Shown: in pieces, positions 18,106-64,000 of the stretch
How the letters are laid out: each line of letters starts with the position of its first letter
How positions within the stretch are numbered: the first letter of the stretch is position 1
Source of the DNA: Squalus acanthias
Lineage: Eukaryota
DNA: 64,000 nt
Reading direction: 5' to 3'
NCBI GenBank assembly: GCA_030390025.1
Contig: CM059432.1
Span: 27,220,001 to 27,284,000, forward strand
The notes under the pieces: model-generated
Database searches by the model: none
What the model saw: the letters and a program-made list of their open reading frames with translations, nothing else
Told to the model about the DNA's origin: nothing
Program-made: the position numbers and the translations under genes

Positions 18106-19666
18106 TGTAGTAAGCAACAGCTTCTGAGCTTGGAAATTGAACAGCTGTGAGATGGAAGCTTTTCTAGCACATTAGCAGTTGTCAAGTAAAAAGATGATTT
18201 CATGGTAACACAACTCCTGATCCCTGAGCAGCGGGGCCTCCGTGAGCGACCTCATAAAATTTAAAGGTGAGCTCAAAATACTTTTTAAGTGGCTCTTAAC
18301 AAGGTCATGATGACCTAAATTGCTTCCCCTGCTGCTGCGTGTCGATCTGTTCCGCATTAACAGACCCGACATCTGGGAAAGTCACATGGTGGCAGGTTGA
18401 CAGCGAATTCCCGACCCACTGTGGGGGGAAAAAAAAATGATCCCGCCAGCAAACGCACCCGCTGACCCCCGAAAAATTCCCCCCAACGTTTCAGGTCGAT
18501 GACCTTTCCTCAGAACTCAGTTATCACGTAACTGAGCATGTCAGAGACCCGTTCTTTAGTGCATTGTCACCATGCATCTCCTCATGTTAGTTGCCTCATG
18601 CACAACATATCACATTTTCACACACACTATCATACCACATTTGATATCAGATACAAGCCATTCCTGGGCTTTTAAGTTATCTTATCAAAAGCATGGAGGT
18701 CTTTTCTCCTCTCTCACTGCATGGTTCCAATGTCTATGGTAGTGGCCAGGCTATCAAATACATTTTTCTCATTGTTCAATATAGGCAAAGACACAAACAT
18801 CTCCAAGAGAAACCTAGCAATCATTGATTTTCACCTACACTTTCCTGACCTTCAGTCGAATGTACATTGATACTGAATTTAAATCTTTTCAGGTATCATG
18901 CCCAGGTGATATATGCTACTCAGAGATGCACTCACATATCTTTTCCTAACCTCTGTTCGAGTTCCTGAAATTCACCAATAATCACCTTGAAAAATTATTT
19001 TTGAAAAATTACCATTTGGTGGTTTAATTTCCCCTTGTTCCTACCTTATATCCTCAATCCTCTGATCCAATTTTACACATCCCTTTATATTACCATTCCA
19101 TCTCATTCATAGGCCTGGAGAAACTTTACTATCCAATAAAATAAGATCATTAGCATTTAACAAATTTCCCAAATCAATCCAATTTATCAACACATTTTGT
19201 TCATTCCACTTAAATTCTTATTGAACCTTTTATTTCTCAAAATATTGTGCCTGAGTTCATTCTATCATTTCAAAATTATCCCAATTCCAGAGAGCAATTC
19301 AGTCTGCAAGATGAGGGCTGTTGGTTACCTTTAACACAACAGTCTCCCCCCAAAAACATTTTTCTTAATACACAGTTTGGACGGAACCACTTCGACGGGA
19401 ACTTTTCAAAAATAAAATTTGATTATCCCCTTAAACTTCAGATAAATTTCCCTTCCCAAGTGTTTGAACAGCAACTCATAGCAATTTATCTAACCAATTT
19501 TAATTTCACAAACAAATTATGCCCAGGCTTGGTAGTTTTACAAAGGAGGCAAAAGTACTTGCAATTACATTTGGATGTAAGTCTTCTCTCTTCCCCCTCA
19601 AGCAATGTGTCTTGGAAGATAACAAATGACTCTGAATAGGTTAAATCCAAGCATTGGAAAGGCAAA

Positions 19667-27307: not shown

Positions 27308-28336
27308 GGTGGTGCTCCAAGGCCTGGTGGCATTGGCTGGGTCCTGAGGATTGCCATGTTATGCAGCATGCAGCACACAACTACGATGTTGGAAACTCGC
27401 TCAGGCGAGTACTGCAGGGCTCCTCCAGAATGGTCGAGACAGCGGAACCGTTGCTTGAGCACGCCGATTGTGTGCTCCACGATGTTCCTGGTAGCTTGAT
27501 GGCTCTCGTTGTACCGCAGCTCAGCAGGGGTGTTGGGCGTACGGAGCGGTGTCATCAGCCAGGTGCTCAGTGGATACCCCTTGTCCCCGAGAAGCCAACC
27601 AACTGGCTGATGCGGTGCCTCAAAGTTCTGCCACAGTAGTCTGGCGCAGGATGAAAGCATCGTGGCAGCTGCCAGGATAGTGGGCATTGACAGCGAGTAT
27701 CAGCTGTCTGTGGTCACAGACCAACTGAACATTCAAGGAATGGAACCCCTTTCTGTTCCGGAAATCCTCGGCATTCTCATGCGGAGCACGCAAAGCCACA
27801 TGCGTGCAGTCAATGGCGCCCTGCACCATGGGGAAGCCCGCTATCCTCGCAAAGCCCAGAGCGCGTTCTTGCTGCTTGTCTGGGGTCATGGGGAAAGAGA
27901 TGAACTCTCGTCTCCTTTTAAAGAGGGCATTTGTGACCTTCCTGATGCAGCAATGCACCGCGAACTGGGAGATATTGGCGATGTCCCCAACAGCAGATTG
28001 AAATGAGCCAGTAGCATAAAAGTTCAGAGCCACTGTGACCTTCACTGCCACCGACCGAGACGTCCTGGACCTCAGTTGAGGCTGCAGATCTGGCTGCAGC
28101 AGGTGGCAGAGCTCAGTGACCACCTCCTTGCTGAAGCGCAGCCTTCGCAGACACTGCTCATCAGACATATGAATGTAGGAGAGCTGTTCACGATATACCC
28201 TGAGAGGGTAAGCTCTCCTGTACAGACGCCTGTTGGCCCTCCTCCGTCTGGCCATCATTGCCACTCTCTCTCTGCGTCTCTGTCTCCTCCGATTCAGCTG
28301 GCGCAGGACGACGCCCCCCATCAGTGCAGCCCCCAT
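27178..28336 (-). pseudogene. Harbinger (HARBI1-like) DDE transposase, one frameshift near 27630
   Basis: [40 protein letters not shown] and [15 protein letters not shown] across ORFs 27620-28348 and 27178-27687. Confidence 0.92.
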
Positions 28337-29007
28337 ATCTCTTAGCAAGCAAAGTTATGAAGGCCAGAAACCAAAGTACCAGCGAAGTTAGGATGAGTAG
28401 CCAAAACTACCTCACACAGCGTTGACTCAATGCAGAAGTCTCTCTTTCTCTCTCTCCGAATCTCTCTCTCTCTCTCTCTCAGAACGAGTGGTGCAAAAAT
28501 GTCAACCACAGAGAAAGACAGGAAGAGGCCCCCTTTAAATAGCGCCCCCCCCCCCCAGCCCCACAGCGATTGTTCGCGTTCCACTCTTCCGGTCGTTGGA
28601 TGCGCCAGGCGGTAAGGATGGGGGCGCCACTGAAATTCTGCTCCGGGGCGCCACAAGGGCGTTGCACTCTCGTATGACGTCACAATCTGCGCGCGCAGGA
28701 GATCGCGGCGATAAAGTTTAGCGCCGCCGCAAAATGTCTAGTTAAGTTCGCGAGCGGCGCAAACATCGCTGTGCCGGGCGCTAGCTGCTTTGCGCCCCAT
28801 TAGCGCCCTCTTAAGGTGCTAACGGGAGGCACAACCAACTGAATTTTTCCCCCATGGAGTTCTTGAAATTGTCAGAAATTCAAAAATACCAATTATTGAT
28901 GCGATTGTCTCATGACCAGAACTAGAGACTTTCACACAATTTACAACAACCAAAATTTCACTGTGGTCACAATAAAAGTCTGCTTTTCACACTTTAATAG
29001 GTTAGTT

Positions 29008-30069: not shown

Positions 30070-30217
30070 ATGCCTAAATTTTACCACAATACATCTTGAA
30101 AAAGAGGGAGGAGCCACAGCCAGTGACACAGAAACGTTCACACATGTTTTGTAAAGAAACATTAACATTTACACTGAAAACAAAAAATTTTTTTTAGAAC
30201 AGTAGAAAAGAGACATG

Positions 30218-31110
30218 GGGGGAAAAATTCAGTTGGTTGCGCCTCCCGTTAGCGCCTTAAGAGGGCGCTAATGGGGCGCAAAGCATCCAGCGCCCAGGCG
30301 CGGTGAAGTTTGCGCCGCTTGCGAAATTAACTAGACATTTTGCGGCGGCGCTAAACACTACCGCCACGATCTCCTGCGCCGGCAGATCATGACGTCACTC
30401 GAGTGCGCAACACCCCGGTATTGCCCCGGAGCGGATATTGAGTGGCGCCCCCTGCCTTACCGCCTGACGCTAGCAACGACAGGTTGAGGGGAGCGTTCTG
30501 CAGTCATGAAGGGAAAGGGGGAGCGCTATTTAAAGGTGACCGCTTCCTGCCTTTTATTGTTGGTGCCATTTTTGAACTACGCATTCTGAGAGAGCGAGGG
30601 AGAGACTTCTGGAGAGATTCAACGTTGTGTGAAGGAGTTTTGGGTACTGAGCAGCACTTTGCAGGTTCATTTTGATTTGCCATTCCTTGTATCGATTTAG
30701 CAGAGACTGTGGGAGCTGCACTCTGAGCTCTTTGCCTGGTACTCTCCATTGTTCTTTCCAGCACATTTGATGTGCAAGTCTCTCCAGGCCGAGATTCAAG
30801 GCTGCAATGAGCAGGATGTGGATGGAAAGCAAGATTAACCATCCCCTTTAAGAACTGGCCCGTGCCATTGTGTGTGTGTACCATTGCTGACTGACATTAC
30901 ATGAGCTTCGCCAGCGCTCTGAGGTAGCGCCTCGCTCCTCGGCCTTTGCGCCTTAAGACAGGTGTGAAGCGCCTGATATAGCGCTGCAATCACCTCCAGG
31001 GGTGATAAAAGTCAAGTTTGCAGTCGGTGGCGATAATTAGCGCAAGGCGCTAATATTTGCGCCCGGCCGATAATTGCGCCCCAAATGGGGCGATACTGAA
31101 TTTCTCCCCC
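30218..31110. mobile_element. Harbinger internal-deletion derivative (MITE)
   Basis: TIRs GGGGGAAAAATTCAGT / ACTGAATTTCTCCCCC, ATG TSD; inverted homologue of 41595-42471. Confidence 0.92.
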
Positions 31111-41594: not shown

Positions 41595-42471
41595 GGGGGA
41601 GAAATTCAGTATCGCCCCATTTGGGGCGCAATTATCGGCTGGGCACAAAGATTAGCGCCTGGCGCTAATTATCGCCTCCGACTGCAAACTTGGCTTTTAT
41701 CGCCCCTGGAGGTGATTGGAGCGCTAAATCAGGCGCTTCACAACTGTCTTAAGGCGCAAAGGCCGAGGAGCGAGGCGCTACCTCAGAGCGCTGGCAAAGC
41801 TCATGTGATGTCAGTCAGCAATGGAACACAGACACAATGGTGCCGGCCAGTTCTCCATCCACATCATGCTCATTGCAGCCTTGAATCTCGGCCAGGAGAG
41901 ACCTGTACATCAAATCTGCTGGAAAGAACAATGGAGAGCACCAGGGAACGAGCTCAGAGTGCAGCCCCGACAGTCTCTTCTAAATCGATACAAGGAAGGG
42001 CAAATCAAAATGAACCTGCAAAGTGCTGCTCAGTACCCAAAACTCCTTCACACAGCGTTGAATCTCTCCAGAAGTCTCTCTCTCTCTCTCTCTCTCTCTC
42101 AGAATGCGTGGTGCAAAAATGTCACCAACAAAAAAAGGCAGGAAGCGGTCGCCTTTAAATAGCGTTCCCCCAGTCCCTTCCTGACTGCAAAACGCTCCCC
42201 TCAACCTGTTGTTGCTAGCGGCAGGCGGTAAGGCAGGGGGTGCCACTCAATATCCGGTCCGGGGCGCTACCGGGGCGTTGCGCACTCGACTGACGTCACG
42301 ATCTGCCGGCGCAGGAGATCGTGGCGGTAGTGTTTAGCGCTGCCACAAAATGTCTCGTTAATTTCGTGAGCGGCGCTAACATCGCCATGCCCGGGCGCTA
42401 GTTGCTTTGCGCCCCATTAGCGCCCTCTTAAGGCTCTAACAGGAGGCGCAAACCAACTGAATTTTTCCCCC
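41595..42471. mobile_element. Harbinger internal-deletion derivative (MITE) inserted in CR1
   Basis: TIRs GGGGGAGAAATTCAGT / ACTGAATTTTTCCCCC, TAA TSD. Confidence 0.92.
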
Positions 42472-43277
42472 TAAATCTGTGTCCCCTAGTCCTTGTACCA
42501 TCAACTAGTGGGAACAGCCTTTCCCCATCTAGCCTAACCAAACCCGTCATAATCTTGTACACCTCTATCAAATCACCCCTCAACCTCCTTTGCTCAAATG
42601 AAAACAAATCCAGCTTCTCCAACCTGTCCTTGTAGCTAAGATCCCCCATCCCCGGAACCATTCTGGTAAATCTCCTCTGCACCCTCTCAAGGATCTTTAC
42701 ATCCTTCCTAAAGTGTGGTGACCAGAACTGGACGCAATACTCCAGTTAAGGCCTAACCAGCGCTTTATAAAGTTTCAGCATAACTTCTCTACTTTTGTAC
42801 TCAATACCTCTATTTATGAAGCCCAAGATCTCATAAGCTTTGTTTACTACTCTCTCAATATGTCCTGCCACCTTCAGGGACCTATGCACATTAACTCCCA
42901 GGTCCCTCTGTCACTGCACACTCTTTAAAACTGTGCCATTAAGTGTATATTGCTTCTCCCTGTTCCTTCTGCCAAAATGCATCACCTCATACTTCTATGT
43001 ATTAAATTCCATCTGCCACTTGTCTGCCCATTCTGCTAGCCTTTCTATGTCCTGTTGCAGTCGATTGATATCATCATCACTGTTTGCCACACCACCAAGT
43101 TTGGTGTCATCAGCAAATTTAGAAATTCTACTCTGTATTCCAATATCCAGGTCATTTTTATATTTCAAAAAAAGGAGTGGCCCCAGCACAGACCCTTGGG
43201 GAACACCACTGTCTACCTCCAGTCTGAAAAGCAGCCATTTACCACAACTCGTTGTTTTCTGTCCTTAAGCCAATTCC
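42472..43277 (-). mobile_element. CR1 LINE RT fragment
   Basis: ORFs 42428-42682 and 42995-43189 (FADDTKL). Confidence 0.85.
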
Positions 43278-50131: not shown

Positions 50132-51881
50132 TGTAAGGGATTCCCTGACCCTGCGTGTCTCGTAGCCTGTGAGATTCACGCGGCTCTGTGCAGCCTGTAT
50201 GTCAGTGCGGGTCTAGGCCTGGTTGCCTGTTCTGGTCTCCAGCCAGTCTGGGAACACTAGACACACCTGTGAGTGGTTCGAATCACTCTCCCTTACGGTT
50301 CTAGACACTGGACTTAGATGCGAGAGCAGTAATGGAGATAAAACTCATGTAGACTTGGTTTGAATGGTACGAAATGGAAAATCTTTATTGCATGATACTT
50401 AAAATTATGAAATACATGTCATAAGCACAGATTAATGACAGTACAATCTTACAAACAGTTATATAGTCGATCTTAGGGAAACGAGGAACGAACGGCACAA
50501 CGTAAATAGGGGCACACATTACAAATATCCTTAATCTTTAAACCCTCCCCTATCAATATCTATCCTAAACTAGCTTCGTAGGATCTCGAGACTCATGCTC
50601 ACCACTCGTGATAACTCGGAGAAATTCCGAATAGCTGATCGGATGTCTTTCACCGCAGCACCCACGTGTCGGTCAGGAGATCTCCTGGTCCCACTTGTTT
50701 ACTTGCTTCTGCTGCTTCGGCTAGTAGGCTGGACCGTCTGCTGTGATGAAGACCTGTGTTGGCTGGTTTAACAGGTACTCTTGGAGCACCGTTGTCAATA
50801 TCATTGATACGATGTGTTTTCACGTTCCAACCTCCTTAGACACAGTCCCGTTATCGTCGATGCAATATGTTTTGTTAGAAGTTTTAAAGAAGAAAACTTC
50901 CTGGCGAGGAAAACTTGGCTGATCGACCTACAGGCGCGGTCGGGATTTACTGACCGTGGCGATGGATATGGTCTTCTTCTCTTCTCCTCTCATCTCATCT
51001 CATCTCATCTCATCTCGGGCCTTTGGTTCCGCTGCCAGTTACCAACATAGGTCTTCGTTACGCGACACGAGGTAGATCCGTACGGATCAGAAAGTTCAAC
51101 AGTCTTTTCAGAAGAGGCAACAGGCACGCAGAAGCCCAACTACGAGTACACAGGAGCAGCCACGAGGTTACGAATCGACCGGATAAAACACAGGAGCAAG
51201 CGAGCGAACGCAGGAGCAAGAACAAGAGCACGAGGCAAGAGGCAAGAGAGCGAATGGACGGTTTGGAGCCTGCAATTATAGTGCAAAAATCTTCCGTTTC
51301 CCGCCCAACTATAATGTCCATTCTTTTGTTTAGGGTTTGGCGCCCAAATGTCTTGTATGGGTGATCTCCGTTCTTAATGGGTTTCGGGGCTACTCATGAA
51401 TGTTTGAGTACCTGTTAATATTTCTCCCATTGTTAAATCGGTCGGTGTTCTCCCTGGAGGGGTTTGGGGCTTCCAAGTGTCATGTATAACTACCTGCTAA
51501 CGGCTCTCTCATCGTAGAGTCGTTGGGAGTTTACATATTAATGTCCTTTGGATGGGCCCTTGATTACTCGGTACAATGGCTTTCCTTTGTACCTGGGAGA
51601 CCGATTCCAGTATCTATGTTTATACTGCAAACCCATAATGTCTCGTGTATTATCTTCACTGTGCTGAATCGTTATCGATCTTGCACAAATGTTTAATGGA
51701 ACGCCATCTTGTCTGCCTGTTGAAAAGTCCAGAATGTTCTGTCACGAGGTGCGGCGGCCATTTTACAGGCTGCTTGTGTCCAATTTAAACCTGCCAGCAT
51801 TCTGCTGAAATAAAAGCTGTTTGAACGAAACTTTGTGTTTTCTCCTTATTAATCAAATCGCGATATATTGCGAATTCTACA
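50132..51881 (-). repeat. 3' LTR (1750 bp)
   Basis: Direct repeat of 59910-61659; ends TGTA...TACA; minus-strand AATAAA at 50384-50389. Confidence 0.97.
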
Positions 51882-51893
51882 GTCCCTCCTGTT
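51882..51893 (-). promoter_or_regulatory. Polypurine tract (AACAGGAGGGAC)
   Basis: Purine-rich stretch immediately 5' of the 3' LTR on the coding strand. Confidence 0.7.
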
Positions 51894-52304
51894 GATGCGA
51901 ATAACTCCGCTTATCGTATCAAAAATCACAGTGGTGAGCAATCTTATCTCGATTTCACTCCGAATCCAGTAAATTAATCCCATAAATTTTAACTTAACGA
52001 GGGTCTCTGTGTCGTCCTTATTTCCCAAGAAAATCACATTTTATATCACCGTAGGCATCATTTGCCCTTAAACTTACACCACTTGTTTTCCTTCCCGGCG
52101 TAACCAGGCCGATACCTCACGCATCACCTGTATATTTGTCTTTTATTCAGGGAAAGGAAAAAACAAAACCCAAAACCAAACAATCAACACCATCACCAAA
52201 ATAAACAAATCCCAACTCTTAAACATGTCGAGTTTCCAACGTATTTACAATGAGTACAAACTTCCGCGGCGCACGCGGCGAGCGGGAGTGGCGCCATTTT
52301 CCGA

Positions 52305-54176
52305 TTACACGGTGCTCTCATCGTGCACGCGCACGTAACGTTCTCGCCACTCTCCCGTGTTTTCATGCTTGGTGAGGCGCTTGTCTCTTTTACAATGTAT
52401 GACCAATAGGTACACTACAATAAACACTTGACAGACGACTAAAATGTGGGAGGCTATTCTGATCCATGAAGGCACTTCAATATTCGTGAACAGATTCCAC
52501 CACGGTGGAACCACTATGTCCAGAATGTCTGTTCCTATTTCGACAGTTTTCTGCTCTAATGTATAAAAATGTTTCTGTGATACCGCGACGGCTTTCAGAA
52601 GTTTGGTTAAATGCTCAGGGAGAGGGGGAATGAGGTATCCAAAATGCGCGACAAATCGCTGCAAGTCGGTGAAATTCTCTTTTACTGTGAGATGAACAGT
52701 GGATGGTTCAGGGATTGGGATAATTCGCTGTTGTGCTACTTGAACTTCAGCCCTGGGTTTAAAACAGAAACTGCTGTCACTCACCGGACACCGGCTACGG
52801 TTTCCATGCTGGTAGTGTTGCGCTGCAGTGGTAACACAATATGTTCCACCCCCGATGTATGCTACCTGCGGAGGCACATGATCTTGTGCCATTGCCTCCA
52901 TGGTGCAATTCATGGACTTGGCGCCAGCCGTTCTGAACCCGCACTGTGGTGTTAAAAAGGCACTCAAGTGCTGGGGGCACAGTATTATGTGTGCTCCCCT
53001 GCCACGACAACCAGAGAGATCTGTACCTGTCATCGTTTGCTCCCAGCGGATGACGTAAGGTGGAACTGCTGCATAACGAATGTGGGCTCCCCCCTGAATG
53101 ACACCAATGTTCTCTACCCGATACACCGGGGCGGGCTTTGCTGTGTTGCCCAAAACCGGCATGCGTAATACTATTCCCATAATAGTATGGTTTGAACGTC
53201 CGCAGTCCACGGGGACTGGGTAAGCTTCTGAAGCTAGCCTGAGCTGGCACGGACTTAATGCGTTCTGAAAAGGGTGGAGCGCCCGCAGGTGTTTGTTACT
53301 TATCCAGGACGGAACCAAACCTTGTTTTAAATCCTCCAAATTACTGCGGCCCTCGCCCAGTAACCACGCCCCGTAAAGCACGCACACCTCGTTCTGCGCA
53401 GCTTGATCGGATGCATTCCGATCTTCCCTGATCAGGGCATTTACCGTACGCGCATGTTTCTCCAGCTCTGCTATAATTTCCTTTAAATGGAGAGTCATGG
53501 CTTGGTCCTCGTGTAGACCTGACCCTACCACTTTATTCTCATCTGTTAGAATGTCTTTTAACTGTGTTTTTAAACCATTAATCTGGGTCTGCAGCTCCAC
53601 ACTGTCTAGAGCGTTGACCACAGATGTCCCTGTGTTAAAAGCAGTGAACGCATCGTTCACCAAACCCCTTCTTTGCCTCCCTACTTGATCCAAAACTTCC
53701 TGCGGTGCGGTGTACAAACTTGTCTTATCAATTTCTGCAAAATCAAACTCGTAAAATTGTCTGAACATCTTGGTCAACAGGACCTGATACAACTGTTCCG
53801 TCTTTTTGGGGCACCACTCTGGTAACCGTACCTCAGTGAGATTTAAAATCACCGAGGCCACCGCGTAATGTACCCCCTGAAATAGTATCTGGTCTGTGGG
53901 GACCAGTACCAAACCGTTCCCGGGTCCCTTACTAGCTTTAGGGCACCCTTCTTCCTCAGCTAGAACCACCGGAATCGTGGGCGGGGCTTTGCGTGGGCGC
54001 GTAATGAGTTCAGTGGCATTTACTGGGATCGGGGAGAATGGGGCTCCGCACCCCCTGGTGCTCGCATCCCACCTCATCCCCTGTCCGTTATCCTGCCATT
54101 GATTAATAAAAAAATATGGAGATGCCTTTGGGGCAAACGTACTTTGACCCCCACATACATACATAAATCCCCTCAT
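52305..54176 (-). CDS. env: Envelope / class I fusion glycoprotein, C-terminal part (furin site, fusion peptide, heptads, Cys-rich domain, TM)
   Basis: RQRR|GLVNDAFTAFNTGTSVVNAL; heptad LQTQINGLKTQLKDIL; Cys-rich central block; Trp-rich juxtamembrane region; TM ILVVCQVFIVVYLLVI; no signal peptide in this frame. Confidence 0.88.
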   Translation of the reverse strand: MRGFMYVCGGQSTFAPKASPYFFINQWQDNGQGMRWDASTRGCGAPFSPIPVNATELITRPRKAPPTIPVVLAEEEGCPKASKGPGNGLVLVPTDQILFQGVHYAVASVILNLTEVRLPEWCPKKTEQLYQVLLTKMFRQFYEFDFAEIDKTSLYTAPQEVLDQVGRQRRGLVNDAFTAFNTGTSVVNALDSVELQTQINGLKTQLKDILTDENKVVGSGLHEDQAMTLHLKEIIAELEKHARTVNALIREDRNASDQAAQNEVCVLYGAWLLGEGRSNLEDLKQGLVPSWISNKHLRALHPFQNALSPCQLRLASEAYPVPVDCGRSNHTIMGIVLRMPVLGNTAKPAPVYRVENIGVIQGGAHIRYAAVPPYVIRWEQTMTGTDLSGCRGRGAHIILCPQHLSAFLTPQCGFRTAGAKSMNCTMEAMAQDHVPPQVAYIGGGTYCVTTAAQHYQHGNRSRCPVSDSSFCFKPRAEVQVAQQRIIPIPEPSTVHLTVKENFTDLQRFVAHFGYLIPPLPEHLTKLLKAVAVSQKHFYTLEQKTVEIGTDILDIVVPPWWNLFTNIEVPSWIRIASHILVVCQVFIVVYLLVIHCKRDKRLTKHENTGEWRERYVRVHDESTV

Positions 54177-54657
54177 CCGGTTCCCACCATTTGTCCCAAC
54201 AGACTTTCACTTGTCCGTCTGTCCCCGTAATTGTCCGATGGGTATTATTACCCAGTCGTTCCCACTCGACCGAAGAGTTTCTCATAGTTTTGCTCAGCTT
54301 TCGCAGCCACCACCATCGGCTCAATGGGACATTCCCACTACAGGTCAAACAAATCCGTTTGCCGACGGTGACGCTGATCCTGGGTGCGATGATCCTTACT
54401 TTGGGGCACATTAAAGAAGTCTCTTTGTAGGCGAACCCCGATGTGCTGGAATACTCCGTTGAGTTCGTTCCCAGCCATCCTGGCCACCTTCCCTTGTGGA
54501 AATAGGTGCTGGTCCCCTCTGCCTTTCGTCTTCCGGTCCCATCCACCGCGATGGGGGCCGTGTCCCCAGAACATCCAAACACCACGACATCCTTGGTGTG
54601 GCCTCGATAGGCCAATCCACATCCGATTGCCACGAGCAATACTAGAATTCGTTCCAT
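54103..54657 (-). CDS. Signal peptide and Ig-like domain protein (probable Env N-terminus; ORF open from 54816)
   Basis: MERILVLLVAIGCGLA; ICLTC...RWWWLRK...DEGIYVC; N-glycosylation sequons NST, NSS and NNT; AGGATGG Kozak context just after a CACAG splice acceptor. Confidence 0.75.
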   Translation of the reverse strand: MERILVLLVAIGCGLAYRGHTKDVVVFGCSGDTAPIAVDGTGRRKAEGTSTYFHKGRWPGWLGTNSTEYSSTSGFAYKETSLMCPKVRIIAPRISVTVGKRICLTCSGNVPLSRWWWLRKLSKTMRNSSVEWERLGNNTHRTITGTDGQVKVCWDKWWEPDEGIYVCMWGSKYVCPKGISIFFY

Positions 54658-54837
54658 CCTTCCTTGGTTCCTGTGATCAGATAGAATGAGGTAGCCAGCC
54701 TCGCAAAAGTCTCTGGCTTTTGTGAAGGGTGAGCGGGTCCCCTGACCTCGCCTCACGTAAACTTCAACGTTTGCTGAATAGACTTCCTCTAAACCTAGCC
54801 TTAAAACTCCCATCATTTTATCGTTTTCTGTTAAAAC

Positions 54838-54940
54838 ACTACAAACTTAGCCTTATTAAAACTTAAAACTTAACCTTGACCCTACAAACTTAAACTTAAC
54901 CTTGAACTATAAACTTAAAACTTAAAACTAAAACTTTACA
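54838..54940. repeat. Degenerate AAACTT/AACCTT low-complexity repeat between pol and env
   Basis: Direct reading. Confidence 0.75.
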
Positions 54941-54967
54941 GTGCCGCCCGTTCTCAGGGCGGCCCCT

Positions 54968-57900
54968 TTAAATTCTGAGAAGGCTGCTGCGAGCTCTTCC
55001 CGACGGTGGGAGGGCACTGACCCTTCCCTCTGATCTGCCGCAGCCTGTTACTGCTGCGATGTGGCCTGTCTGTACCCGGGTTATCTTAACCTGAAGTCTA
55101 CGCCTTGGGGCAGTCTGGGGACATGACCACATCCTCCTGGGCTGGGGTTCTCTACTTGACCTACGGGGAGTTGCTATGGGCGGGGGTTCCGTGACGGACG
55201 GACCGGGTTCCGAGACCTCCAACGGGATGACCTGGGGTTCCATCACAGTCGCCGGCTCCGCCTCCGCTGACTCCGCCTCCCTAACCTCGGGGCTGGCAGT
55301 TCGTGGCTCCGCCCTGCTCGGCCCAGCAGGCGGCCCTTCACTCGTGATCTCTGCCTCCCCTGAGGACTGGACGTTCAAGGCGGGCGGCCACATCTCTGGG
55401 AGCCACATTGGTACTCTCTGTGCTCCTATAGCGGCTGGCCCTGCCTCCTCTAGCTCCTCCCTCCTGTCCTCGGGACCTGCAGCTTGTGTGTCCACCCTGT
55501 GTGGATCTCTACCTATCGGCCCCATTCCCCCCAGACCGTTCCTCAGGAACCACCCGTCATCATCACTATGCTCATCTGCACTATCCTCATCTGACCAGGG
55601 TACCCTGGGTTCTTCGTCATCTAACCCCCAACTCCAGAAAAACGCTGCATGATCGTCCGGGATGTCCCTTCCTCTGATGCAAGCTGCTATGCCTGCCTGT
55701 GTGCCTTGTGGTCCTACCTGGGGCTGTGCTTTCCCATTGGCGGGATTTACCCCTGTAGTTTTCCCCTGCGCACCCGGCTGGTACAGTTTGCATTGGTTTA
55801 TGTGGAACCACTTAGTGCGCCGAGGCACTTTTACGGCGTAAACCATGGGACTCGCCTTGTCTACAATGTTGTAGGGTCCCATATACAGTGGTTCCAGACT
55901 CCCTACTCTGGCGTAGTTTCTGACCATGACCTGGTCTCCTACTTCCCACTCCCGCGTTTTGCGGGGTTCCAGCAACAAGCGATTGCCCTGATGCTGCCTT
56001 CCCATGTTCCCAGCCGCCTGCTCATAAACTTGCTTCAGGCGCTCCAAGAGAGTCTGGGCGAACTTGTCCCTGCTTATCTCTTGAAGCTGACCCTCAGTGA
56101 GCACCGGGGCTAGCACATGGGTGGGGGTTCGCATGAGCCTGCCGGTCATTACCTCGTGCGGGGAGTACCCCGTACTTTTTGACTGACTGGCCCGGACCCC
56201 CATGAGGACTAAAGGCAGAACTTCCGCCCATTTTTGGGGCGAGTTCCTAGTTTCTTTCCTCAATTTCTCCTTCAGGGTCCGGTTCATACGTTCAACAATC
56301 CCGGATGACTGGGGATTGTGTGCTACGTGCCACTTCCCTTCAATGCCCAAAAGCATGAGGGTGTTCTGCATCACCTGGCCGGTGAAATGACTCCCTTGGT
56401 CTGACTCCACGAAACGGGGGAGTCCCCACCGCGAGAACACTTCCCGGACCAAGATTTTTGCTGTACCCAGTGCCGTAGCTGTTCGACACGGGAAGGCTTC
56501 CACCCACTTGGAAAACACATCCACCAGGACGAGGCAGTACTTATAACCTCCCTGGGTGGTGGGCAGGGGTCCTATATAGTCGATCTGTATCGACTGCCAT
56601 GGTCCCTCTACCCTTCTTACGTGTCCCATGGGCACCTTCCTTTTCTGGGGGTCTGGGTTGTTTGCAGCGCACACAAGACAGTTTGCACAGAACTCGCGGA
56701 CTTGTTCCCTGAGCCCTGGCCACCATCCCGCTTGCTCTACCCGTTGCCAGGTAACCTCGGGCCCGGGGTGCCCTGCCCCTGGTCCCTCGTGAGCCAACTG
56801 GAGGAATTCCCTCCTGTGCTGCTGCGGCACAACCCACTGCTCCCCGCGGAACAGCATGCCTTCCTTAACTGAGAGGGTTGCCGTACTGTACGGACCTTCT
56901 ACCTGCCTCCCCTCAGCAATCGTTTTTAGGACTGCTTTTAGGGCGGGATCCTGGGCTTGGACGGTCTTAAGGTCTAGGGGCAATGCTACCCTGGTGTTCC
57001 CGGTATTCCCGTCCCCGCCTCGGACCGCTGCTATGGGTCCGGTCCTATAGGGGTTCCAGAAAGTGCCGTCGCGGGCACCCTCCCTGGCTAGCGCATCCGC
57101 CTGCCGGTTGCCCTCCCCACGGGGCTCTGTGGAGGAGTGAGCTTTCACCTTATGGATGAAAATCTCCCCTTCCTCCCCTACTGCTGCTGCTAAGATCTTT
57201 TCCAGCAAGGGCTTCACCGTTAAAGGTCGCCCGTCCGCGGAGGTGTATCCGCGGCGGGACCAAATGGCCAGGTATTCCGTACACGAATTGCAGGTGAACA
57301 TACTGTCCGAGCAAATCGTGTATGGGGTTGGGAAAATGTCTGGGTGGGTCACCACGTACACCACGGCAGACAGCTCAGCCTGCTGCGCGCTCATGGTGCT
57401 AGGGAGCTTGATCGCCAGGGCAAGGTCTGCCGCAGGGTCATAAACTCCACACCCTGTGAGTCGCTCGCCAGCAGACACTGTGCTAGATCCATCAACATAA
57501 ATCTCGCGCCCAGTGGGATGTATCCCGGCCCGTAAACCTATGTTGACGTCCCACACCCCTTCCACCGAACACCGGTGGGCTGTACCGGGGTATACCAAAT
57601 TGGCCGCAAGCCTGGGCTCGCAAAGACCTTTTACTCTAAGATCCAACTGGGAGAGAAGAAGGGTCCAACGCGCAATGCGTGCGCTGCTTACGGTCCCGTC
57701 TTTAATCCTCCCATCCAGAAGCATCTTAGTTGGTGTGTGATGTGTGAGGAGAGTGATGGGAGAGAGCCCTGTGAAGATCGCTGATCTTTTCACAGCCCAA
57801 TGCGTGGCTAAAAGGTGCCTTTCGCAATTGGAAAAACTTCTCTCCACATCCGTTAATACCCTGGATGAATAGACAACCGGCCTCAGCTTGCCGTGACGCT

Positions 57901-59905
57901 CTTGGAGCAGCACGGCGCTTAAGCTGTCTCCGCTGGCAGCTACCTCCAGGAAAAACTCCTTCCCCCCATCTATGGCCCCTAAGGCTGGCGCGGTCTGCAG
58001 ATCCCTTTTTAACTTCTCGAAGGCTGCTTGGCAGCCCTCGTCCCAAAGCCACTCCACCCCCTTATGGAGGAGTCGGAGGAGCGGCGCCGCTGTGGCCGCA
58101 TAATCTTCGATAAAATCCCTGCAGTAACCGGTCAGTCCCAAGAAGGACCTCACACCCCTTACGTTGTTGGGAATCGGTAATTCTTGCACCGACTCCCTCC
58201 TTGCTTTGTCTATGGCTCTTTCCCCAGCGCGTAGGGTCAGTCCCAGGAATTTTACTTCCTGCTGACCGATACGTGCTTTCTTTGGGTTTACTTTAAAACC
58301 CTTTCTCGCTAACAGCTCCAATAACTCGTCCAGTAGTGGTCCGTGCTCCTCCCTTGAGTCCGTAAATAGGAGCAAATCATCCACATACTGTACTATCTGA
58401 TTGGGCTGACTAAACTCCTTTAAACTTCCTGCCATACACTGATGAAAAATACTGGGGCTATTGTGGAAACCCTGTGGCAAACAGTTCCACGTGTACTGTT
58501 GCCCTCTGAACGTAAAGGCAAACTTGTACTGGTCCTCTCGCCGCAGCGGGATGGACCAAAAACCGTTCGAGATATCCAGCACCGTGAACGTGGTCGCGGA
58601 CGCTGGGATGCTCCCTATTAGGTCAGCAACTGCTGCTACTGTGGGCGCGCAGGCGGGAATGTTACTGTTAAGGACTCTGTAGTCCACCGTGGCTCTCCAC
58701 GAATTATCCGGCTTCCTAACCGGCCATAATGGGGAGTTCACGTGTGTGGCTATCGGCCTCAACACGCCCTGCTGCACCAAGGAAGACATTGCTGTCTCCA
58801 TATCGGGTTCTGCTTCTTTGGGGAAGTTATACTGCTTTTGGGGTCGGGTCATGGGGTCCCCATCTACGCTGACCTCAAACCCGACCACTCTCCCACAATC
58901 GTGCTTGTGGGTTGCAAACGCGTGCATATTATCTGACACGTACGTTTGCATGTCCGTTGGGACATCTGCGACCATAAGCCTGAGGTCGTAGCCTCCGGAT
59001 GGCTGTACGGTACACAGGACCCCCGGTTCTTCCCCACCGTTTCTGCTTGGGCCCCTTTTAATACCCGTTACTGGATACAACGATCCCTTTTCTTCTTCCT
59101 TTTCAATGGGCTTTTTCGTTCCTTCCATTGCTTCCTCCCTAACCCAGGTTTCTGAGTAGCTGGGTGGCGCGGAGGGCGCAGTGGCTACTACTTCTTCTGC
59201 TTTACTTGGTGGGGATTTTCTAAATCTCTCATTTACTAGCGGCTGGTGCGCCGACGGATTGATAAGGCACACCATGCCGTTCGCATTATTCACGGCCTTT
59301 TTGAGGCTCTCTATCTCCCTTTGGCAGGCGCTATGGTCGGCTCCCTGAAACTTATCCTCAAGGGCCAACTTATACGCCGACCTAACCCCCATTAAGCTCT
59401 CTTCTTGAGTTCTTATCTGGGCAGCTTGGCGGTTGCATCTTTCCTTTAACCTACTCTCATTCAATTTTGCTTCAGTGACCTGGCACTCGAGATACTCTAT
59501 CCTTGTTTTAAGGTGACTGGAGACTTCCTGGCTTTCCTGGTGTAACTCATTTAAATTCTTAATGAGCACCTCCCCTCCAGAAACCTTCTCCTCCATTTCT
59601 CCCTCTAAATGGCTGATTCGAGCTGTTAGCGCTGTAATGGTCTGGTTTGAAATCTGAACCTGCCTTTTGTAGCACATAAGCCAGACTGCTTTCTCAACTG
59701 TCTTTTTATGTTCCTTACTATCTGTCCACCTTTCAGCTGCCTCTAGTGGGCTCTTATCCGCTAACAATTCACTTATCCACTTCTTAGTTAGATTAACCTT
59801 TCCAAACACATAATCCGCTATCTTTTCCTGCATAACATTTCGTACAGTCATTCCAAAATCTAACACACTACCCTCTCGCTGCCAGTGTCCTGCCGCGGTC
59901 GCCAT
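54968..59905 (-). CDS. pol: Single Gag-Pol ORF: coiled-coil Gag N-terminus, RT, tether, RNase H, integrase, acidic/Pro-rich tail
   Basis: NSPLWPVRKPD, LDISNGFW, LPQGF, YVDD (58376-58387); tether VAAS...CERHLLA; RNase H YVDGS/QAEL/CSDS/HKVKAH/GNRQAD; integrase HHCC, IDY/SDQG/VERMN and GPY. Confidence 0.95.
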   Translation of the reverse strand: MATAAGHWQREGSVLDFGMTVRNVMQEKIADYVFGKVNLTKKWISELLADKSPLEAAERWTDSKEHKKTVEKAVWLMCYKRQVQISNQTITALTARISHLEGEMEEKVSGGEVLIKNLNELHQESQEVSSHLKTRIEYLECQVTEAKLNESRLKERCNRQAAQIRTQEESLMGVRSAYKLALEDKFQGADHSACQREIESLKKAVNNANGMVCLINPSAHQPLVNERFRKSPPSKAEEVVATAPSAPPSYSETWVREEAMEGTKKPIEKEEEKGSLYPVTGIKRGPSRNGGEEPGVLCTVQPSGGYDLRLMVADVPTDMQTYVSDNMHAFATHKHDCGRVVGFEVSVDGDPMTRPQKQYNFPKEAEPDMETAMSSLVQQGVLRPIATHVNSPLWPVRKPDNSWRATVDYRVLNSNIPACAPTVAAVADLIGSIPASATTFTVLDISNGFWSIPLRREDQYKFAFTFRGQQYTWNCLPQGFHNSPSIFHQCMAGSLKEFSQPNQIVQYVDDLLLFTDSREEHGPLLDELLELLARKGFKVNPKKARIGQQEVKFLGLTLRAGERAIDKARRESVQELPIPNNVRGVRSFLGLTGYCRDFIEDYAATAAPLLRLLHKGVEWLWDEGCQAAFEKLKRDLQTAPALGAIDGGKEFFLEVAASGDSLSAVLLQERHGKLRPVVYSSRVLTDVERSFSNCERHLLATHWAVKRSAIFTGLSPITLLTHHTPTKMLLDGRIKDGTVSSARIARWTLLLSQLDLRVKGLCEPRLAANLVYPGTAHRCSVEGVWDVNIGLRAGIHPTGREIYVDGSSTVSAGERLTGCGVYDPAADLALAIKLPSTMSAQQAELSAVVYVVTHPDIFPTPYTICSDSMFTCNSCTEYLAIWSRRGYTSADGRPLTVKPLLEKILAAAVGEEGEIFIHKVKAHSSTEPRGEGNRQADALAREGARDGTFWNPYRTGPIAAVRGGDGNTGNTRVALPLDLKTVQAQDPALKAVLKTIAEGRQVEGPYSTATLSVKEGMLFRGEQWVVPQQHRREFLQLAHEGPGAGHPGPEVTWQRVEQAGWWPGLREQVREFCANCLVCAANNPDPQKRKVPMGHVRRVEGPWQSIQIDYIGPLPTTQGGYKYCLVLVDVFSKWVEAFPCRTATALGTAKILVREVFSRWGLPRFVESDQGSHFTGQVMQNTLMLLGIEGKWHVAHNPQSSGIVERMNRTLKEKLRKETRNSPQKWAEVLPLVLMGVRASQSKSTGYSPHEVMTGRLMRTPTHVLAPVLTEGQLQEISRDKFAQTLLERLKQVYEQAAGNMGRQHQGNRLLLEPRKTREWEVGDQVMVRNYARVGSLEPLYMGPYNIVDKASPMVYAVKVPRRTKWFHINQCKLYQPGAQGKTTGVNPANGKAQPQVGPQGTQAGIAACIRGRDIPDDHAAFFWSWGLDDEEPRVPWSDEDSADEHSDDDGWFLRNGLGGMGPIGRDPHRVDTQAAGPEDRREELEEAGPAAIGAQRVPMWLPEMWPPALNVQSSGEAEITSEGPPAGPSRAEPRTASPEVREAESAEAEPATVMEPQVIPLEVSEPGPSVTEPPPIATPRRSSREPQPRRMWSCPQTAPRRRLQVKITRVQTGHIAAVTGCGRSEGRVSALPPSGRARSSLLRI
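59887..59904 (-). promoter_or_regulatory. Primer-binding site complementary to tRNA-Arg (UCG-type)
   Basis: TGGCGACCGCGGCAGGAC, 5 nt after the 5' LTR; its complement GTCCTGCCGCGGTCG-CCA matches my recollection of the vertebrate tRNA-Arg(TCG) 3' end. Confidence 0.85.
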
Positions 59906-59909
59906 TTTC

Positions 59910-61659
59910 TGTAAGGGATTCCCTGACCCTGCGTGTCTCGTAGCCTGTGAGATTCACGCGGCTCTGTGCAGCCTGTATGTCAGTGCGGGTCTAGGCCTGG
60001 TTGCCTGTTCTGGTCTCCAGCCAGTCTGGGAACACTAGACACACCTGTGAGTGGTTCGAATCACTCTCCCTTACGGTTCTAGACACTGGACTTAGATGCG
60101 AGAGCAGTAATGGAGATAAAACTCATGTAGACTTGGTTTGAATGGTACGAAATGGAAAATCTTTATTGCATGATACTTAAAATTATGAAATACATGTCAT
60201 AAGCACAGATTAATGACAGTACAATCTTACAAACAGTTATATAGTCGATCTTAGGGAAACGAGGAACGAACGGCACAACGTAAATAGGGGCACACATTAC
60301 AAATATCCTTAATCTTTAAACCCTCCCCTATCAATATCTATCCTAAACTAGCTTCGTAGGATCTCGAGACTCATGCTCACCACTCGTGATAACTCGGAGA
60401 AATTCCGAATAGCTGATCGGATGTCTTTCACCGCAGCACCCACGTGTCGGTCAGGAGATCTCCTGGTCCCACTTGTTTACTTGCTTCTGCTGCTTCGGCT
60501 AGTAGGCTGGACCGTCTGCTGTGATGAAGACCTGTGTTGGCTGGTTTAACAGGTACTCTTGGAGCACCGTTGTCAATATCATTGATACGATGTGTTTTCA
60601 CGTTCCAACCTCCTTAGACACAGTCCCGTTATCGTCGATGCAATATGTTTTGTTAGAAGTTTTAAAGAAGAAAACTTCCTGGCGAGGAAAACTTGGCTGA
60701 TCGACCTACAGGCGCGGTCGGGATTTACTGACCGTGGCGATGGATATGGTCTTCTTCTCTTCTCCTCTCATCTCATCTCATCTCATCTCATCTCGGGCCT
60801 TTGGTTCCGCTGCCAGTTACCAACATAGGTCTTCGTTACGCGACACGAGGTAGATCCGTACGGATCAGAAAGTTCAACAGTCTTTTCAGAAGAGGCAACA
60901 GGCACGCAGAAGCCCAACTACGAGTACACAGGAGCAGCCACGAGGTTACGAATCGACCGGATAAAACACAGGAGCAAGCGAGCGAACGCAGGAGCAAGAA
61001 CAAGAGCACGAGGCAAGAGGCAAGAGAGCGAATGGACGGTTTGGAGCCTGCAATTATAGTGCAAAAATCTTCCGTTTCCCGCCCAACTATAATGTCCATT
61101 CTTTTGTTTAGGGTTTGGCGCCCAAATGTCTTGTATGGGTGATCTCCGTTCTTAATGGGTTTCGGGGCTACTCATGAATGTTTGAGTACCTGTTAATATT
61201 TCTCCCATTGTTAAATCGGTCGGTGTTCTCCCTGGAGGGGTTTGGGGCTTCCAAGTGTCATGTATAACTACCTGCTAACGGCTCTCTCATCGTAGAGTCG
61301 TTGGGAGTTTACATATTAATGTCCTTTGGATGGGCCCTTGATTACTCGGTACAATGGCTTTCCTTTGTACCTGGGAGACCGATTCCAGTATCTATGTTTA
61401 TACTGCAAACCCATAATGTCTCGTGTATTATCTTCACTGTGCTGAATCGTTATCGATCTTGCACAAATGTTTAATGGAACGCCATCTTGTCTGCCTGTTG
61501 AAAAGTCTAGAATGTTCTGTCACGAGGTGCGGCGGCCATTTTACAGGCTGCTTGTGTCCAATTTAAACCTGCCAGCATTCTGCTGAAATAAAAGCTGTTT
61601 GAACGAAACTTTGTGTTTTCTCCTTATTAATCAAATCGCGATATATTGCGAATTCTACA
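59910..61659 (-). repeat. 5' LTR (1750 bp)
   Basis: Direct repeat of 50132-51881; the only difference seen is C51730 versus T61508. Confidence 0.97.
61029..61125 (-). promoter_or_regulatory. Putative LTR core promoter
   Basis: TATAAT (61053-61058) 29 nt before a pyrimidine-rich GCTCTCTT start; CGGAAG (ETS-like) and TTTCCCGC / TTTGGCGC (E2F consensus) just upstream. Confidence 0.55.
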
Positions 61660-61663
61660 ACAG

Positions 61664-62970
61664 TGCTATCAAGCAGCACATACTCACCAATAACCTGCTC
61701 ACCGATGCTCAGTTTGGGTTCCGCCAGGACAACCTGGCTCCAGACCGGTCCAAACATGGACAAAGGAGCTGAATTCCAGAGGTGAGGTGAGAGTGACTGC
61801 CCTTGACATCAAGGGAGCATTTGACTGAGTGTGGCATCAAGGAGCCCTAGTAAAACTGAAGTCAATGAGAATCAAGGGGGAAAACTCTCCATTGGCTAGA
61901 GTCATACCTCGCACAAAGGAAGATGGTTGTGGTGATTGGAGGTCAATCATCTCAGCCCCAGGACATCACTGCAGGCGTTCCTCAGGGCAGTGTCCTAGGC
62001 CCAACCATCTTCAGCTGCTTCATCAATGACCTTCCCTCCATCATAAGGTCAGAAGTGGGGATGTTCACTGATGATTGCACAGTGTTCAGTGCCATTCACA
62101 ACTTCTCAGATAATGAAGCAGTCCATGCCCGCATGCAACAAGACCTGGATGACATTCAGGTTTGGGCTGATAAGTGGAAAGTAACATTCACACCACACAA
62201 GTGCCAGGCAATGATTATATCCAACAAGCAAGAGTCTAACCACCTCCCCTTGACATTCAACGGCATTACCATCGCCGAATCCCCCACCATCAACATCCTG
62301 GGGGTCACCATTAACCAGAAACTTAACTGGACCAGCCACATAAATACTGTGGCAACAAGAGCAGATCAGAGGCTAGGTATTCTGCGGTGACTGTCTCACC
62401 TCCTGACTCCCCAAAACCTTTCCACCATTTACAAGGCATAAGTCAGGAGTGTGATGGAATACTCTCCACTTGCCTGGATGAGTGCAGCTCCATCAACACT
62501 GAAGAAGCTTGACACCATCTATGACAAAGCAGCCCACTTGATTTGGCACCCCATCCACCACCTTAAACATTCACTCCTTCCACCACCAGCGTACAGTGGC
62601 TGCAGTGTGTACCATCGACAAGAGGCACTGCAGCAACTCACCAAGGCTTCTTCAGAAGCACCTCCCAAACCTGCAACCTCTAACACCTAGAAGGACAAGG
62701 GCAGCAGGCACATGGGAACACCATCACCTGCAAGTTCCCCTCCAAGTTACACACCATCCTGACTTGGAAGTATATCGCTGTTCCTTCATTGTCGCTGAGT
62801 CAAAATCATGGAACTCCCTGCCAAGCAGCACTGTGGGAGTACCATCACCACACGGACTGCAGCGGTTCAAGAAGGCGGCTCACTACCACCTTCTCAAGGG
62901 CAATTAGGGATGAGCATTAAATGCTGGTCTTGCCAGCGACGCCCACATCCCATGAACAAATTTTTAAAAA
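61664..62970 (+). mobile_element. CR1/Jockey-group LINE (second family), 5'-truncated, target of the ERV insertion
   Basis: ORF 61923-62390 GVPQGSVLGPTIFSCFINDL and FTDDC; same 3' end as 17233-18105. Confidence 0.88.
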
Positions 62971-63101
62971 TTCAATCACAAAACCAATCAAACATATTCA
63001 ACCCTTATATTTAGGTAAGACACAAAAGTCCCTCTATATACTTCAATAACTAATTAAGGGATGGAACCATCCAGTCCACAGGTAGCCTTTGTGTGCCTTT
63101 G

Positions 63102-64000
63102 GGGGTAAAAATTCAGTTGGTTGCGCCTCCCGTTAGCGCCTTAAGAGGGCGCTAATGGGGCGCAAAGCCGCTAACGCCCGGGCCCAGCGATGTTTGCACC
63201 GCTCGGGAACTTAACTAGAGATTGTGCGGCGGCGCTAAACCTTACCGCTGCGACCACCTGCGCGCGCAGATTGTGACGTCATTCCATGGTGCAACGCCCT
63301 TGTGGCGCCCCGGAGCGGAAATTGAGTGGCGCCCCCTGCCTTACCGCCTGGCGCATCCAACGACCGGAAGACTGGAACGCTATCAATCGCTGTGGGGCTG
63401 GGGGGGGCGCTATTTAAAGGGGGCCTCTTCCTGTCTTTTTCTGTGGTCGACATTTTTGCACCACTCGTTCTGAGAGAGAGAGAGAGATTCGGAGAGAGAG
63501 AAAGAGAGACTTCTGCATTGACTCAACGCTTTGTGAGGTAGTTTTGCCTACTGATCCTAACTTCGCTAGTACTTTAGTTGCTGTCCTTCATTACTTTGCT
63601 TGCAAAGAGAATATGGGGGCTGCACTGATTGGGGGCGTCGTCCTGCTCCAGCTGAATCGGAGGAGACAGAGACGCAGAGAGAGAGTGGCAATGATGGCCA
63701 GACGGAGGAGGGCCAACAGGCATATGTACAGGAGAGCTTACCCTCCCAGGGTATATCGTGAACAGCTCTCCTACATTCATATGTCTGAGGAGCTGTGTTT
63801 GCGAAGGCTGCGATTCAGCAAGGAGGTGGTCACTGAGCTCTGCCACCTGCTGCAGCCAGATCTGCAGCCTCAACTGAGGTCCAGGACGTCTCTGTCGGTG
63901 GCAGTGAAGGTCACAATGGCTCTCAACTTCTACGCTACTGGCTCATTTCAAGCTGCTGGTGGGGACCTCGCCAATATCTCCCAGTTCGTGGTGCATTGCT
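63102..64000 (+). mobile_element. Second Harbinger copy (opposite orientation), transposase from ATG 63613 running off the window
   Basis: TIR GGGGTAAAAATTCAGT; reverse-complement homologue of ~27950-28853. Confidence 0.92.

Follow-up and report, generated by a model that had tools for sequence, protein, structure and literature searches.

A putative immunoglobulin-like head preceding the F-type fusion core of an endogenous retroviral envelope protein

The subject of this work is the envelope (Env) gene of a long terminal repeat (LTR) provirus, carried on the minus strand of a 64,000-nucleotide stretch of contig CM059432.1 (positions 27,220,001 to 27,284,000; hereafter the window, to which all positions refer), and in particular its 5' part, a 237-residue open reading frame (ORF) at 54816..54103 (-). 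The reading that we favour, with some reserve, is that this part encodes the signal peptide and N-terminal head of an Env precursor, in which an immunoglobulin (Ig)-like domain placed before a core resembling the fusion (F) proteins of paramyxoviruses and pneumoviruses acts as a receptor-binding module. That the domain itself, residues 137-245, belongs to the Ig superfamily (IgSF) can be proposed with good confidence; the assignment is backed by sequence comparison, the structural models of the domain being of low confidence. Residues are counted from the start of the 237-residue ORF, the Env protein itself likely starting at residue 54.

The initial annotation had described Ig B-, C- and F-strand motifs in the 54103-54816 region, and these are indeed present at Ig spacing, but the strand that encodes them is the minus one; on the plus strand this region is full of stops. 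ISVTVGKRICLTC occupies residues 147-159, WWWLRK residues 168-173 and DEGIYVC residues 214-220 (-), with 11 residues from Cys159 to Trp170 and 61 from Cys159 to Cys220, spacings that are canonical for V/I-set domains. The B-strand Cys, the C-strand Trp and the F-strand D-x-G-x-Y-x-C are hence found in the canonical order as well as at the canonical distances. In an alignment of five lineages that are only 54-72% identical, C156, C159, W170, C206, Y218, C220 and C228 are invariant; because the same residues are retained in lineages so diverged, the motif pattern is beyond that expected by chance. In the family Env the domain maps to 54081..54408 (-), residues 137-234 being in the frame of the 237-residue ORF and the last strand (IFFINQWQ...) in that of a 623-residue ORF that overlaps it.

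A profile made from the five lineages matches the IgV domain of CRTAM among PDB sequences (E 0.002 and 0.0039, positions 8-98 of 108), the alignment spanning the full domain with the B-strand Cys, C-strand Trp and DEGxYxC all paired, and 7 of its 10 PDB matches are IgSF proteins; the E-value of 0.002 is a modest one, coming from a profile of five sequences. With the window ORF alone JAM is matched at E 0.11, and 22 of the 32 PDB matches are Ig chains, none significant singly. The IgV/I-set domains of CRTAM and JAM (4h5s, 3rbg, 1f97) are the best solved sequence look-alikes, similar along the full length of the domain, with the Cys, Trp and DEGxYxC positions included, but with E-values of only 0.002 to 0.11 the likeness is at the superfamily level and is not evidence of a donor or of a common ligand. 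In Pfam, Ig_3 is the top match for the relative P0050 (E 0.0027, 18.6 bits) and the sole match for P0009 (E 0.0085), the window ORF (E 0.11, 13.4 bits) and P0005 (E 0.58). The ESM feature clusters nearest to the domain are mostly of Ig clans (0.87-0.89), and the whole Env yields one chordate cluster in the ESM Atlas (0.84), both of which are leads only. The AlphaFold2 (AF2) models of the region, of low predicted local distance difference test score (pLDDT), place strands at the expected sites of B, C, E, F and G, and by title all 48 of the listed Foldseek matches to the low-confidence N-terminal model are antibody, T-cell receptor or IgSF V-type domains (E 0.018-0.057).

Several results weigh against the Ig assignment. 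Every Pfam Ig match falls below the 30-bit cut-off, the best reaching 18.6 bits, and no Pfam Ig match is obtained for P0001, P0012, P0018, P0046, P0016 or P0025. The AF2 model of residues 54-300, made from 11 sequences, has a mean pLDDT of 35, and in the whole-Env model the pLDDT of the head is 25-60. The Foldseek E-values to IgV domains are 0.018 at best, and a wide, geometry-only VIA search with the low-confidence head model yields only generic beta-sandwiches (Z 6.4 at best), the 50 matches listed including no classical IgV domain. The checks by Pfam, AlphaFold and Foldseek that had been suggested for the N-terminus gave Ig_3 and V-type Ig domains as weak matches, all Pfam matches being sub-threshold and the pLDDT low. 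Such results are what would be seen if the head were a viral Cys/Trp-rich beta domain that mimics the Ig motif pattern while lying outside the Ig superfamily, a proposal that also draws on the additional conserved cysteines at 156, 206 and 228 and on a WDKWW motif unusual for Ig domains. We regard this as improbable, though to be taken seriously, since the CRTAM IgV profile match aligns the characteristic residues across the full domain and since Ig families recur as the top weak match in Pfam, PDB sequences, ESM features and Foldseek alike.

The case for membership of the Ig superfamily is accompanied by a structural case for the nature of the protein that follows the head. A model of residues 54-836 was made with AF2 from 42 aligned sequences (mean pLDDT 61; 82-95 in the core), and on Foldseek comparison with the PDB all 37 listed matches are F proteins of paramyxoviruses or pneumoviruses (E 3e-12 to 5e-8). 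VIA aligns 282-374 residues at Z 10.3-12.8, pairing model residues 245..651 with F residues ~26-433; the alignment begins at model residue 245, i.e. residue 298 of Env, the position where mature F2 begins. RQRR at residues 380-383, followed by the hydrophobic GLVNDAFTAF, is a cleavage site predicted from sequence; long helices are modelled at 391-444 and 681-712, and residues 730-766 form the anchor helix. Shared with F are the three-domain head fold, a basic site adjoining the hydrophobic fusion peptide, the pair of heptad-repeat helices and the anchor at the C-terminus. By modelled fold, therefore, Env from residue 298 onwards is confirmed as an F-type fusogen, as the initial annotation had supposed. 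Compared with F proteins of known structure (human parainfluenza virus 3, 1ztm; Langya virus, 8u1r; Nipah virus; respiratory syncytial virus; human metapneumovirus), the fold match covers everything between the start of mature F2 and the end of the head, and the furin-type site before the fusion peptide, the two heptad repeats and the C-terminal anchor are shared, but sequence identity is 6-14% and F lacks an N-terminal extension of ~225 residues such as is present here. As F likeness begins only at residue 298, the Ig-like domain lies within this extension, which comprises, after the signal peptide, a conserved region of residues 73-136, the Ig-like domain and a linker. It is not to be equated with the Ig-fold domain II of F, a different element that, according to the accessible text of PMC11468914, sits inside F1.

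Two sets of sequence searches fail to recover the F likeness. PF00523 is not matched at E up to 1 by this Env or by eight relatives, and no F chain is found in PDB sequence searches with the Env ORF or with a 34-sequence profile, the best match of these searches being to a coronavirus spike heptad repeat 2 region (E 0.029). The comparison with lokiretroviruses is relevant in this regard. As set out in the main text of Wang and Han (2020, PMC7947760), lokiretroviruses are vertebrate LTR retroviruses with the pol order protease (PR), reverse transcriptase (RT), tether, RNase H (RH) and integrase (IN), as here, and their Env, which is related to F, has a signal peptide, an RXKR-type site, a fusion peptide, a coiled coil and a membrane anchor; their Envs reached PF00523 at 2.2e-7, unlike the present protein. 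The BFVD database extends the likeness, further matches of the model there being F-like glycoproteins from arthropod viruses and baculovirus F. The predicted Envs of two epsilonretroviruses, walleye epidermal hyperplasia virus 1 and walleye dermal sarcoma virus, match the model there as well (E 2e-14 and 8.5e-11), and on these modelled structures the walleye Envs may be F-like too; nothing on F-likeness of the walleye dermal sarcoma virus Env is evident among the papers listed by a full-text search, as judged by titles and abstract starts.

The layout of the remainder of the Env precursor is as follows. The signal peptide, likely the true Env start, is predicted from sequence at 54601..54657 (-) (residues 54-72), where MERILVLLVAIGCGLAYRG begins at residue 54 (54657); its Met and hydrophobic stretch are conserved in P0003, P0009 and P0033, as judged by alignment. 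The conserved region that follows (54409..54600 (-), residues 73-136) has the motifs YGCSG and GRWPGWLGSNS and 44-72% identity to relatives, but by alignment and with pLDDT <50 corresponds to no known fold. In one PDB alignment (E 0.081) AEGTSTYFHKGRWPGWLGTNSTEYSS, within this region, aligns with the end of the heavy-chain variable (VH) domain (AEDTAVYYC...WGQGTLVTVSS) of the single-chain antibody fragment 9nfu_C; the region could be what is left of a second V-type domain, or the similarity could be due to chance. After the Ig-like domain come a poorly conserved linker with one N-glycosylation sequon (53925..54080 (-), residues 246-297), the F2-like part, assigned from the VIA alignment to F and from sequence and ending in the furin-type RQRR at 53667-53678 (53667..53924 (-), residues 298-383), and the F1-like part (52305..53666 (-)), in which AF2, Foldseek and VIA place the fusion peptide, heptad-repeat helices and beta-rich head domains, followed by the membrane anchor (~52392-52466), the tail and the stop.

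Env is a single gene in the family, despite its division in the window. The 623-residue ORF (54176..52305 (-)) is in another frame and overlaps the 237-residue ORF by 74 nucleotides (54103..54176 (-)), and this overlap holds a frame break, a one-base length change within a homopolymer run. In all 11 other copies fetched, the frame of the 237-residue ORF continues into the Env frame, giving open frames of 713 to >823 residues, and so it is not a separate gene; one natural copy, read to its end, encodes an 836-residue Env that, apart from the frame break, differs from the window reading at 1 residue. The correct frame at 54115-54176 is that of the 237-residue ORF, and the 623-residue ORF opens with MRGFMYVCGG..., which is DEGIYVCMWG read out of frame. 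The Ig-like domain accordingly stands at the N-terminus of an Env locus, as had been claimed, but the ORF end at 54103 that was taken as its limit is the result of a change that is either a mutation private to the window copy or an assembly error. A plus-strand ORF at 54441..54689 (82 residues) was dropped as a shadow of the minus-strand gene. As it stands, the window copy is unable to make a whole Env protein, its env frame being broken within the last Ig strand, and the end of gag and the protease are deleted.

It may be asked whether the broken frame has itself a function, i.e. whether the window copy yields a stand-alone secreted protein of 184 residues, made up of the signal peptide, the N-terminal region and the Ig-like domain, that was retained to block a receptor in soluble form. 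Truncated Env proteins acting as restriction factors exist in mammals, the open frame includes a signal peptide, and the LTRs are near-identical, so that the promoter may work. Yet the frameshift is private to one of 12 copies, sits within a homopolymer run, a common place for assembly errors, and cuts the last Ig strand, the insertion is too young for selection to have acted (1 LTR mismatch in 1750), and RNA support was not found; a secreted blocker is accordingly very unlikely. RNA was sought in contigs of four sequencing runs, the RNA nature of which is a guess, and no joint common to the runs that would mark an env splice is present in them; differences in depth between env and pol in these runs are unusable as a measure of expression. 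From the signal peptide on, the variant sites among 12 copies (window 52400-54657 and loci L002-L012) comprise 32 synonymous and 13 non-synonymous ones, so that purifying selection acted on env during the spread of the copies. The excess of synonymous sites points to a spread that would have involved reinfection via a functional env rather than solely intracellular copying.

The initial annotation had regarded the Ig-like domain as a captured module and had recommended a search for its closest host donor. None is detectable: a phmmer search with the whole Env against 1.84 billion representative sequences gives 49 hits, among which there is no host IgSF protein, and the seven hits with their best stretch in the N-terminal part (P0003, P0005, P0009, P0015, P0016, P0025, P0033) are all Env fragments. 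The domain is found at 53-72% identity in skate (P0001, P0005), sawshark (P0003), P0009 and P0050, and the identities of head and F2-like part are comparable, i.e. 72 versus 76% to P0001 and 60 versus 58% to P0050. Because the domain is as conserved between lineages as the F2-like part, any capture must be old and untraceable. Recent acquisition of a host Ig exon by the retrovirus, which the canonical Ig signature (absent from the gammaretroviral receptor-binding domain (RBD)) and the capture of SIRP, as described in the available text of 10.1101/2024.03.17.585361, would favour, is for these reasons highly improbable, the domain being common to skate, sawshark and other lineages and diverging in step with the F2 part. 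The claim of a captured module is not supported. In sawshark the gene models P0002 and P0003 join Env pieces to host genes (Niban-like and C2H2 zinc-finger); these fusions are most likely annotation chimeras across endogenous retrovirus insertions.

A survey of more distant relatives, which had likewise been recommended, gives a mixed picture. The full-length ones come, by source name, from bamboo shark (P0012), frogs (P0018 and P0046) and houndshark (P0011), with P0034 in addition. UniRef calls P0012 an 'Ig-like domain-containing protein', and six of the nine PDB matches of its head are antibody VH domains (E 0.054-0.85); for the head of the frog sequence P0018 all 50 listed PDB matches are antibody heavy chains (best E 0.0049). 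P0034 has a Pfam V-set match (E 0.045), and its PDB matches include no Ig chain. P0011 and P0022 have a Cys-rich head that retains only ICFTC...SLYVC, and P0037 and P0047 are headless, their signal peptide directly joining the F2-like part. The Ig-like domain is therefore present in the close family and Ig-V-like heads in distant shark and frog relatives, but other members have Cys-rich heads or none. When the domain of the close family is compared with the distant heads by hhalign, the E-values are 0.0076, 0.016 and 0.1 with probabilities <6%; the comparisons are weak for P0012, P0018, P0034 and P0011, and a MAFFT alignment of the four distant heads is poor. Since the hhalign comparisons are weak, common descent of the close and distant heads is unsupported. 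The picture is one of an Env family with a conserved F core and variable N-terminal heads, several of them Ig-V-like. The family is scarce in protein databases, three word-index searches returning 3, 4 and 11 proteins.

With regard to function, F-type fusion proteins usually depend on a separate attachment protein, and paramyxoviruses employ one. In the proposal that we favour, the Ig-like head would be the receptor-binding module of Env; after cleavage at RQRR it would be retained by the small F2-like subunit at the surface, itself attached to F1, and binding of a receptor would trigger the F-like refolding. The single env gene would in this way cover the attachment job that is left to a separate protein in paramyxoviruses, in a manner parallel to that of the IgV-like RBD of gammaretroviruses. 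Two points detract from it. Receptor binding by the head is purely something that we infer, and the domain is no more variable than the fusion core, whereas receptor binders engaged in arms races often are. The even conservation of the head, with no hypervariability, would also suit a role mainly as an immune or adhesion mimic, i.e. a decoy or shield engaging IgSF partners of the CRTAM, JAM or nectin kind, with attachment residing elsewhere in Env, and the best solved look-alikes are adhesion or immune IgSF proteins (CRTAM, JAM, neurotrimin and DIPs). These similarities are weak, however (E 0.002-0.2), and do not demonstrate a common partner, and the headless P0037 and P0047 fit an exchangeable targeting module; a mimic or decoy thus appears a rather unlikely primary role.

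The receptor-binding proposal can be set beside known retroviral Envs. The initial annotation had held that the V/I-set signature is not a standard part of the retroviral surface subunit (SU), a statement that is inaccurate, because, in the available text of the preprint 10.1101/2024.03.17.585361 (Hotzel), gamma-type Envs have as standard, at the fold level, an IgV-like N-terminal RBD-C, and an alpharetrovirus-like endogenous Env has an IgV RBD derived from SIRP. As in those cases, the head here would be an independently folding N-terminal Ig-type domain of the surface subunit that is taken as the receptor binder, and modules appear to be exchanged between Env lineages. By contrast, the gamma-type proteins have a CXXC SU and a short transmembrane subunit, whereas the present head precedes an F-type protein of ~540 residues; and the RBD-C of the murine leukaemia virus (MLV) type is described in the same text as a modified IgV domain, unlike vertebrate IgV in structure and sequence, whereas the head here retains the Cys, Trp and DxGxYxC signature. 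Compared with the SIRP-derived RBD, it lacks a detectable donor. By analogy the head may work like RBD-C, but the Env is not a gamma-type member.

The Env of foamy viruses, so far as the accessible text of PMC11468914 describes it, also combines an F-like fusion core with an N-terminal surface RBD of its own (putative in the present case), but its RBD is not there described as an Ig domain. The feline foamy virus Env is a weak match to the model in BFVD (E 2.3e-4, rank 48). Identity of the provirus as an endogenous foamy virus was considered and rejected on account of this weak match, and because gag and pol are here in one frame split by a stop and no ORFs follow env.

The provirus itself spans 11,528 bp at 50132..61659 (-) and is flanked at either end by CTGT, the 4-bp target-site duplication. 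Self-BLAST of the window shows its LTRs as direct repeats, the 5' LTR at 59910..61659 (-) and the 3' LTR at 50132..51881 (-), the latter preceded by a purine-rich tract; each is 1750 bp long with TG...CA ends, and the pair has 1 mismatch, so this insertion is very young. A 1645-residue ORF at 54968..59905 (-) was found by Pfam to join the N-terminal part of gag, through an internal deletion, to RT, tether, RNase H and integrase; no protease or capsid match is obtained in it by Pfam, and the end of gag and the protease are gone. The deletion break is near 59020, all 39 other scored copies matching only the first 931 of the 1351 bases of 59950->58600. A longer copy (L020) has a gag of 619 residues, an in-frame stop and a 1507-residue pol that includes protease, with Pfam matches to RVP (E 8e-4), RVT_1, RT_RNaseH_2, RNase_H and rve; the gene order of the family is thus gag, in-frame stop, PR-RT-tether-RH-IN and env. 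An LTR element having gag and PR-RT-tether-RH-IN (in L020) together with an F-like env fold corresponds in layout to the lokiretroviruses. Copy number is very high, there being 2109 candidates for the Ig/env segment in the 3.7 Gb genome, and the 40 that were scored are all 99-100% identical. The provirus is a young, high-copy, lokiretrovirus-like LTR retrovirus, its host probably being a cartilaginous fish. Its pol is about equally close in the PDB to Ty3 (1.7e-71), the RTs of MLV and XMRV (5.6e-70) and the PR-RT of foamy virus (2e-63), similarities that fit a deep-branching lokiretrovirus-like element but that derive from a PDB comparison rather than a phylogeny.

Copies in the family differ in length. 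By coordinate subtraction in 19 copies, the distance from the 5' part of gag to the start of env is ~2.15-2.23 kb in 12, which lack most of pol but keep env, 5.5-5.65 kb in 6 and 10.7 kb in 1; the spacing of 4.17 kb in the window copy is unlike all of these. The pol-deleted, env-keeping copies seem to be the commonest among the 19 sampled. Near the end of pol a short tandem unit (55017-55054) differs in number between genomic copies, and contigs from each of the four sequencing runs display it as a 'goes back 38' joint. Directly after the 5' LTR, GAAAATGGCGACCGCGG (59895-59909) combines a TGG start resembling that of a primer-binding site with the gag ORF's first ATG; GAAAATGGCGCC, which resembles it, comes after the env stop codon (52290-52305). 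Other repeats in the window, at 80-93% identity and unrelated to the provirus, link 62081-64000 with 17232-18106, 27949-28854, 30216-30617 and 42075-42475.

Each part of the proposed Env is known, and it represents no new kind of system, but a retroviral Env of F type that carries an Ig-like head is not described in the literature searched, in agreement with the initial annotation, which knew of no such case. 'Immunoglobulin', 'shark' and 'cartilaginous' are absent from the main text of PMC7947760, although an N-terminal domain may stand unremarked in its supplements, and 'immunoglobulin' and 'Ig-like' are absent from the later papers examined that mention lokiretroviruses. In its main text PMC7947760 lists five vertebrate host classes, Chondrichthyes not being among them, and the present element extends F-type retroviral elements to this class.

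The wider importance of the finding lies in how an F-type retroviral Env finds its cell. A retrovirus has a single env gene, and the question dates from the first description of lokiretroviruses; an Ig-like head placed before F2, conserved across shark and skate lineages and with Ig-V-like heads at the same position in frog relatives, is a concrete and testable answer. It would be the third setting for an Ig-type domain at the front of a retroviral envelope, after the gamma-type RBD-C and the SIRP capture. A broader view, which is offered tentatively, is that the F-type retroviral Envs of sharks, skates and frogs are modular, a conserved F-like core carrying exchangeable heads, of which the Ig V-like form would be old and widespread and derived from adhesion-type IgSF proteins, making the F machine self-sufficient for attachment; the family studied here, with its thousands of 99%-identical copies, its near-identical LTRs and an env kept under purifying selection, might then represent a recently infectious virus of cartilaginous fish that entered cells via an IgSF-type interaction.

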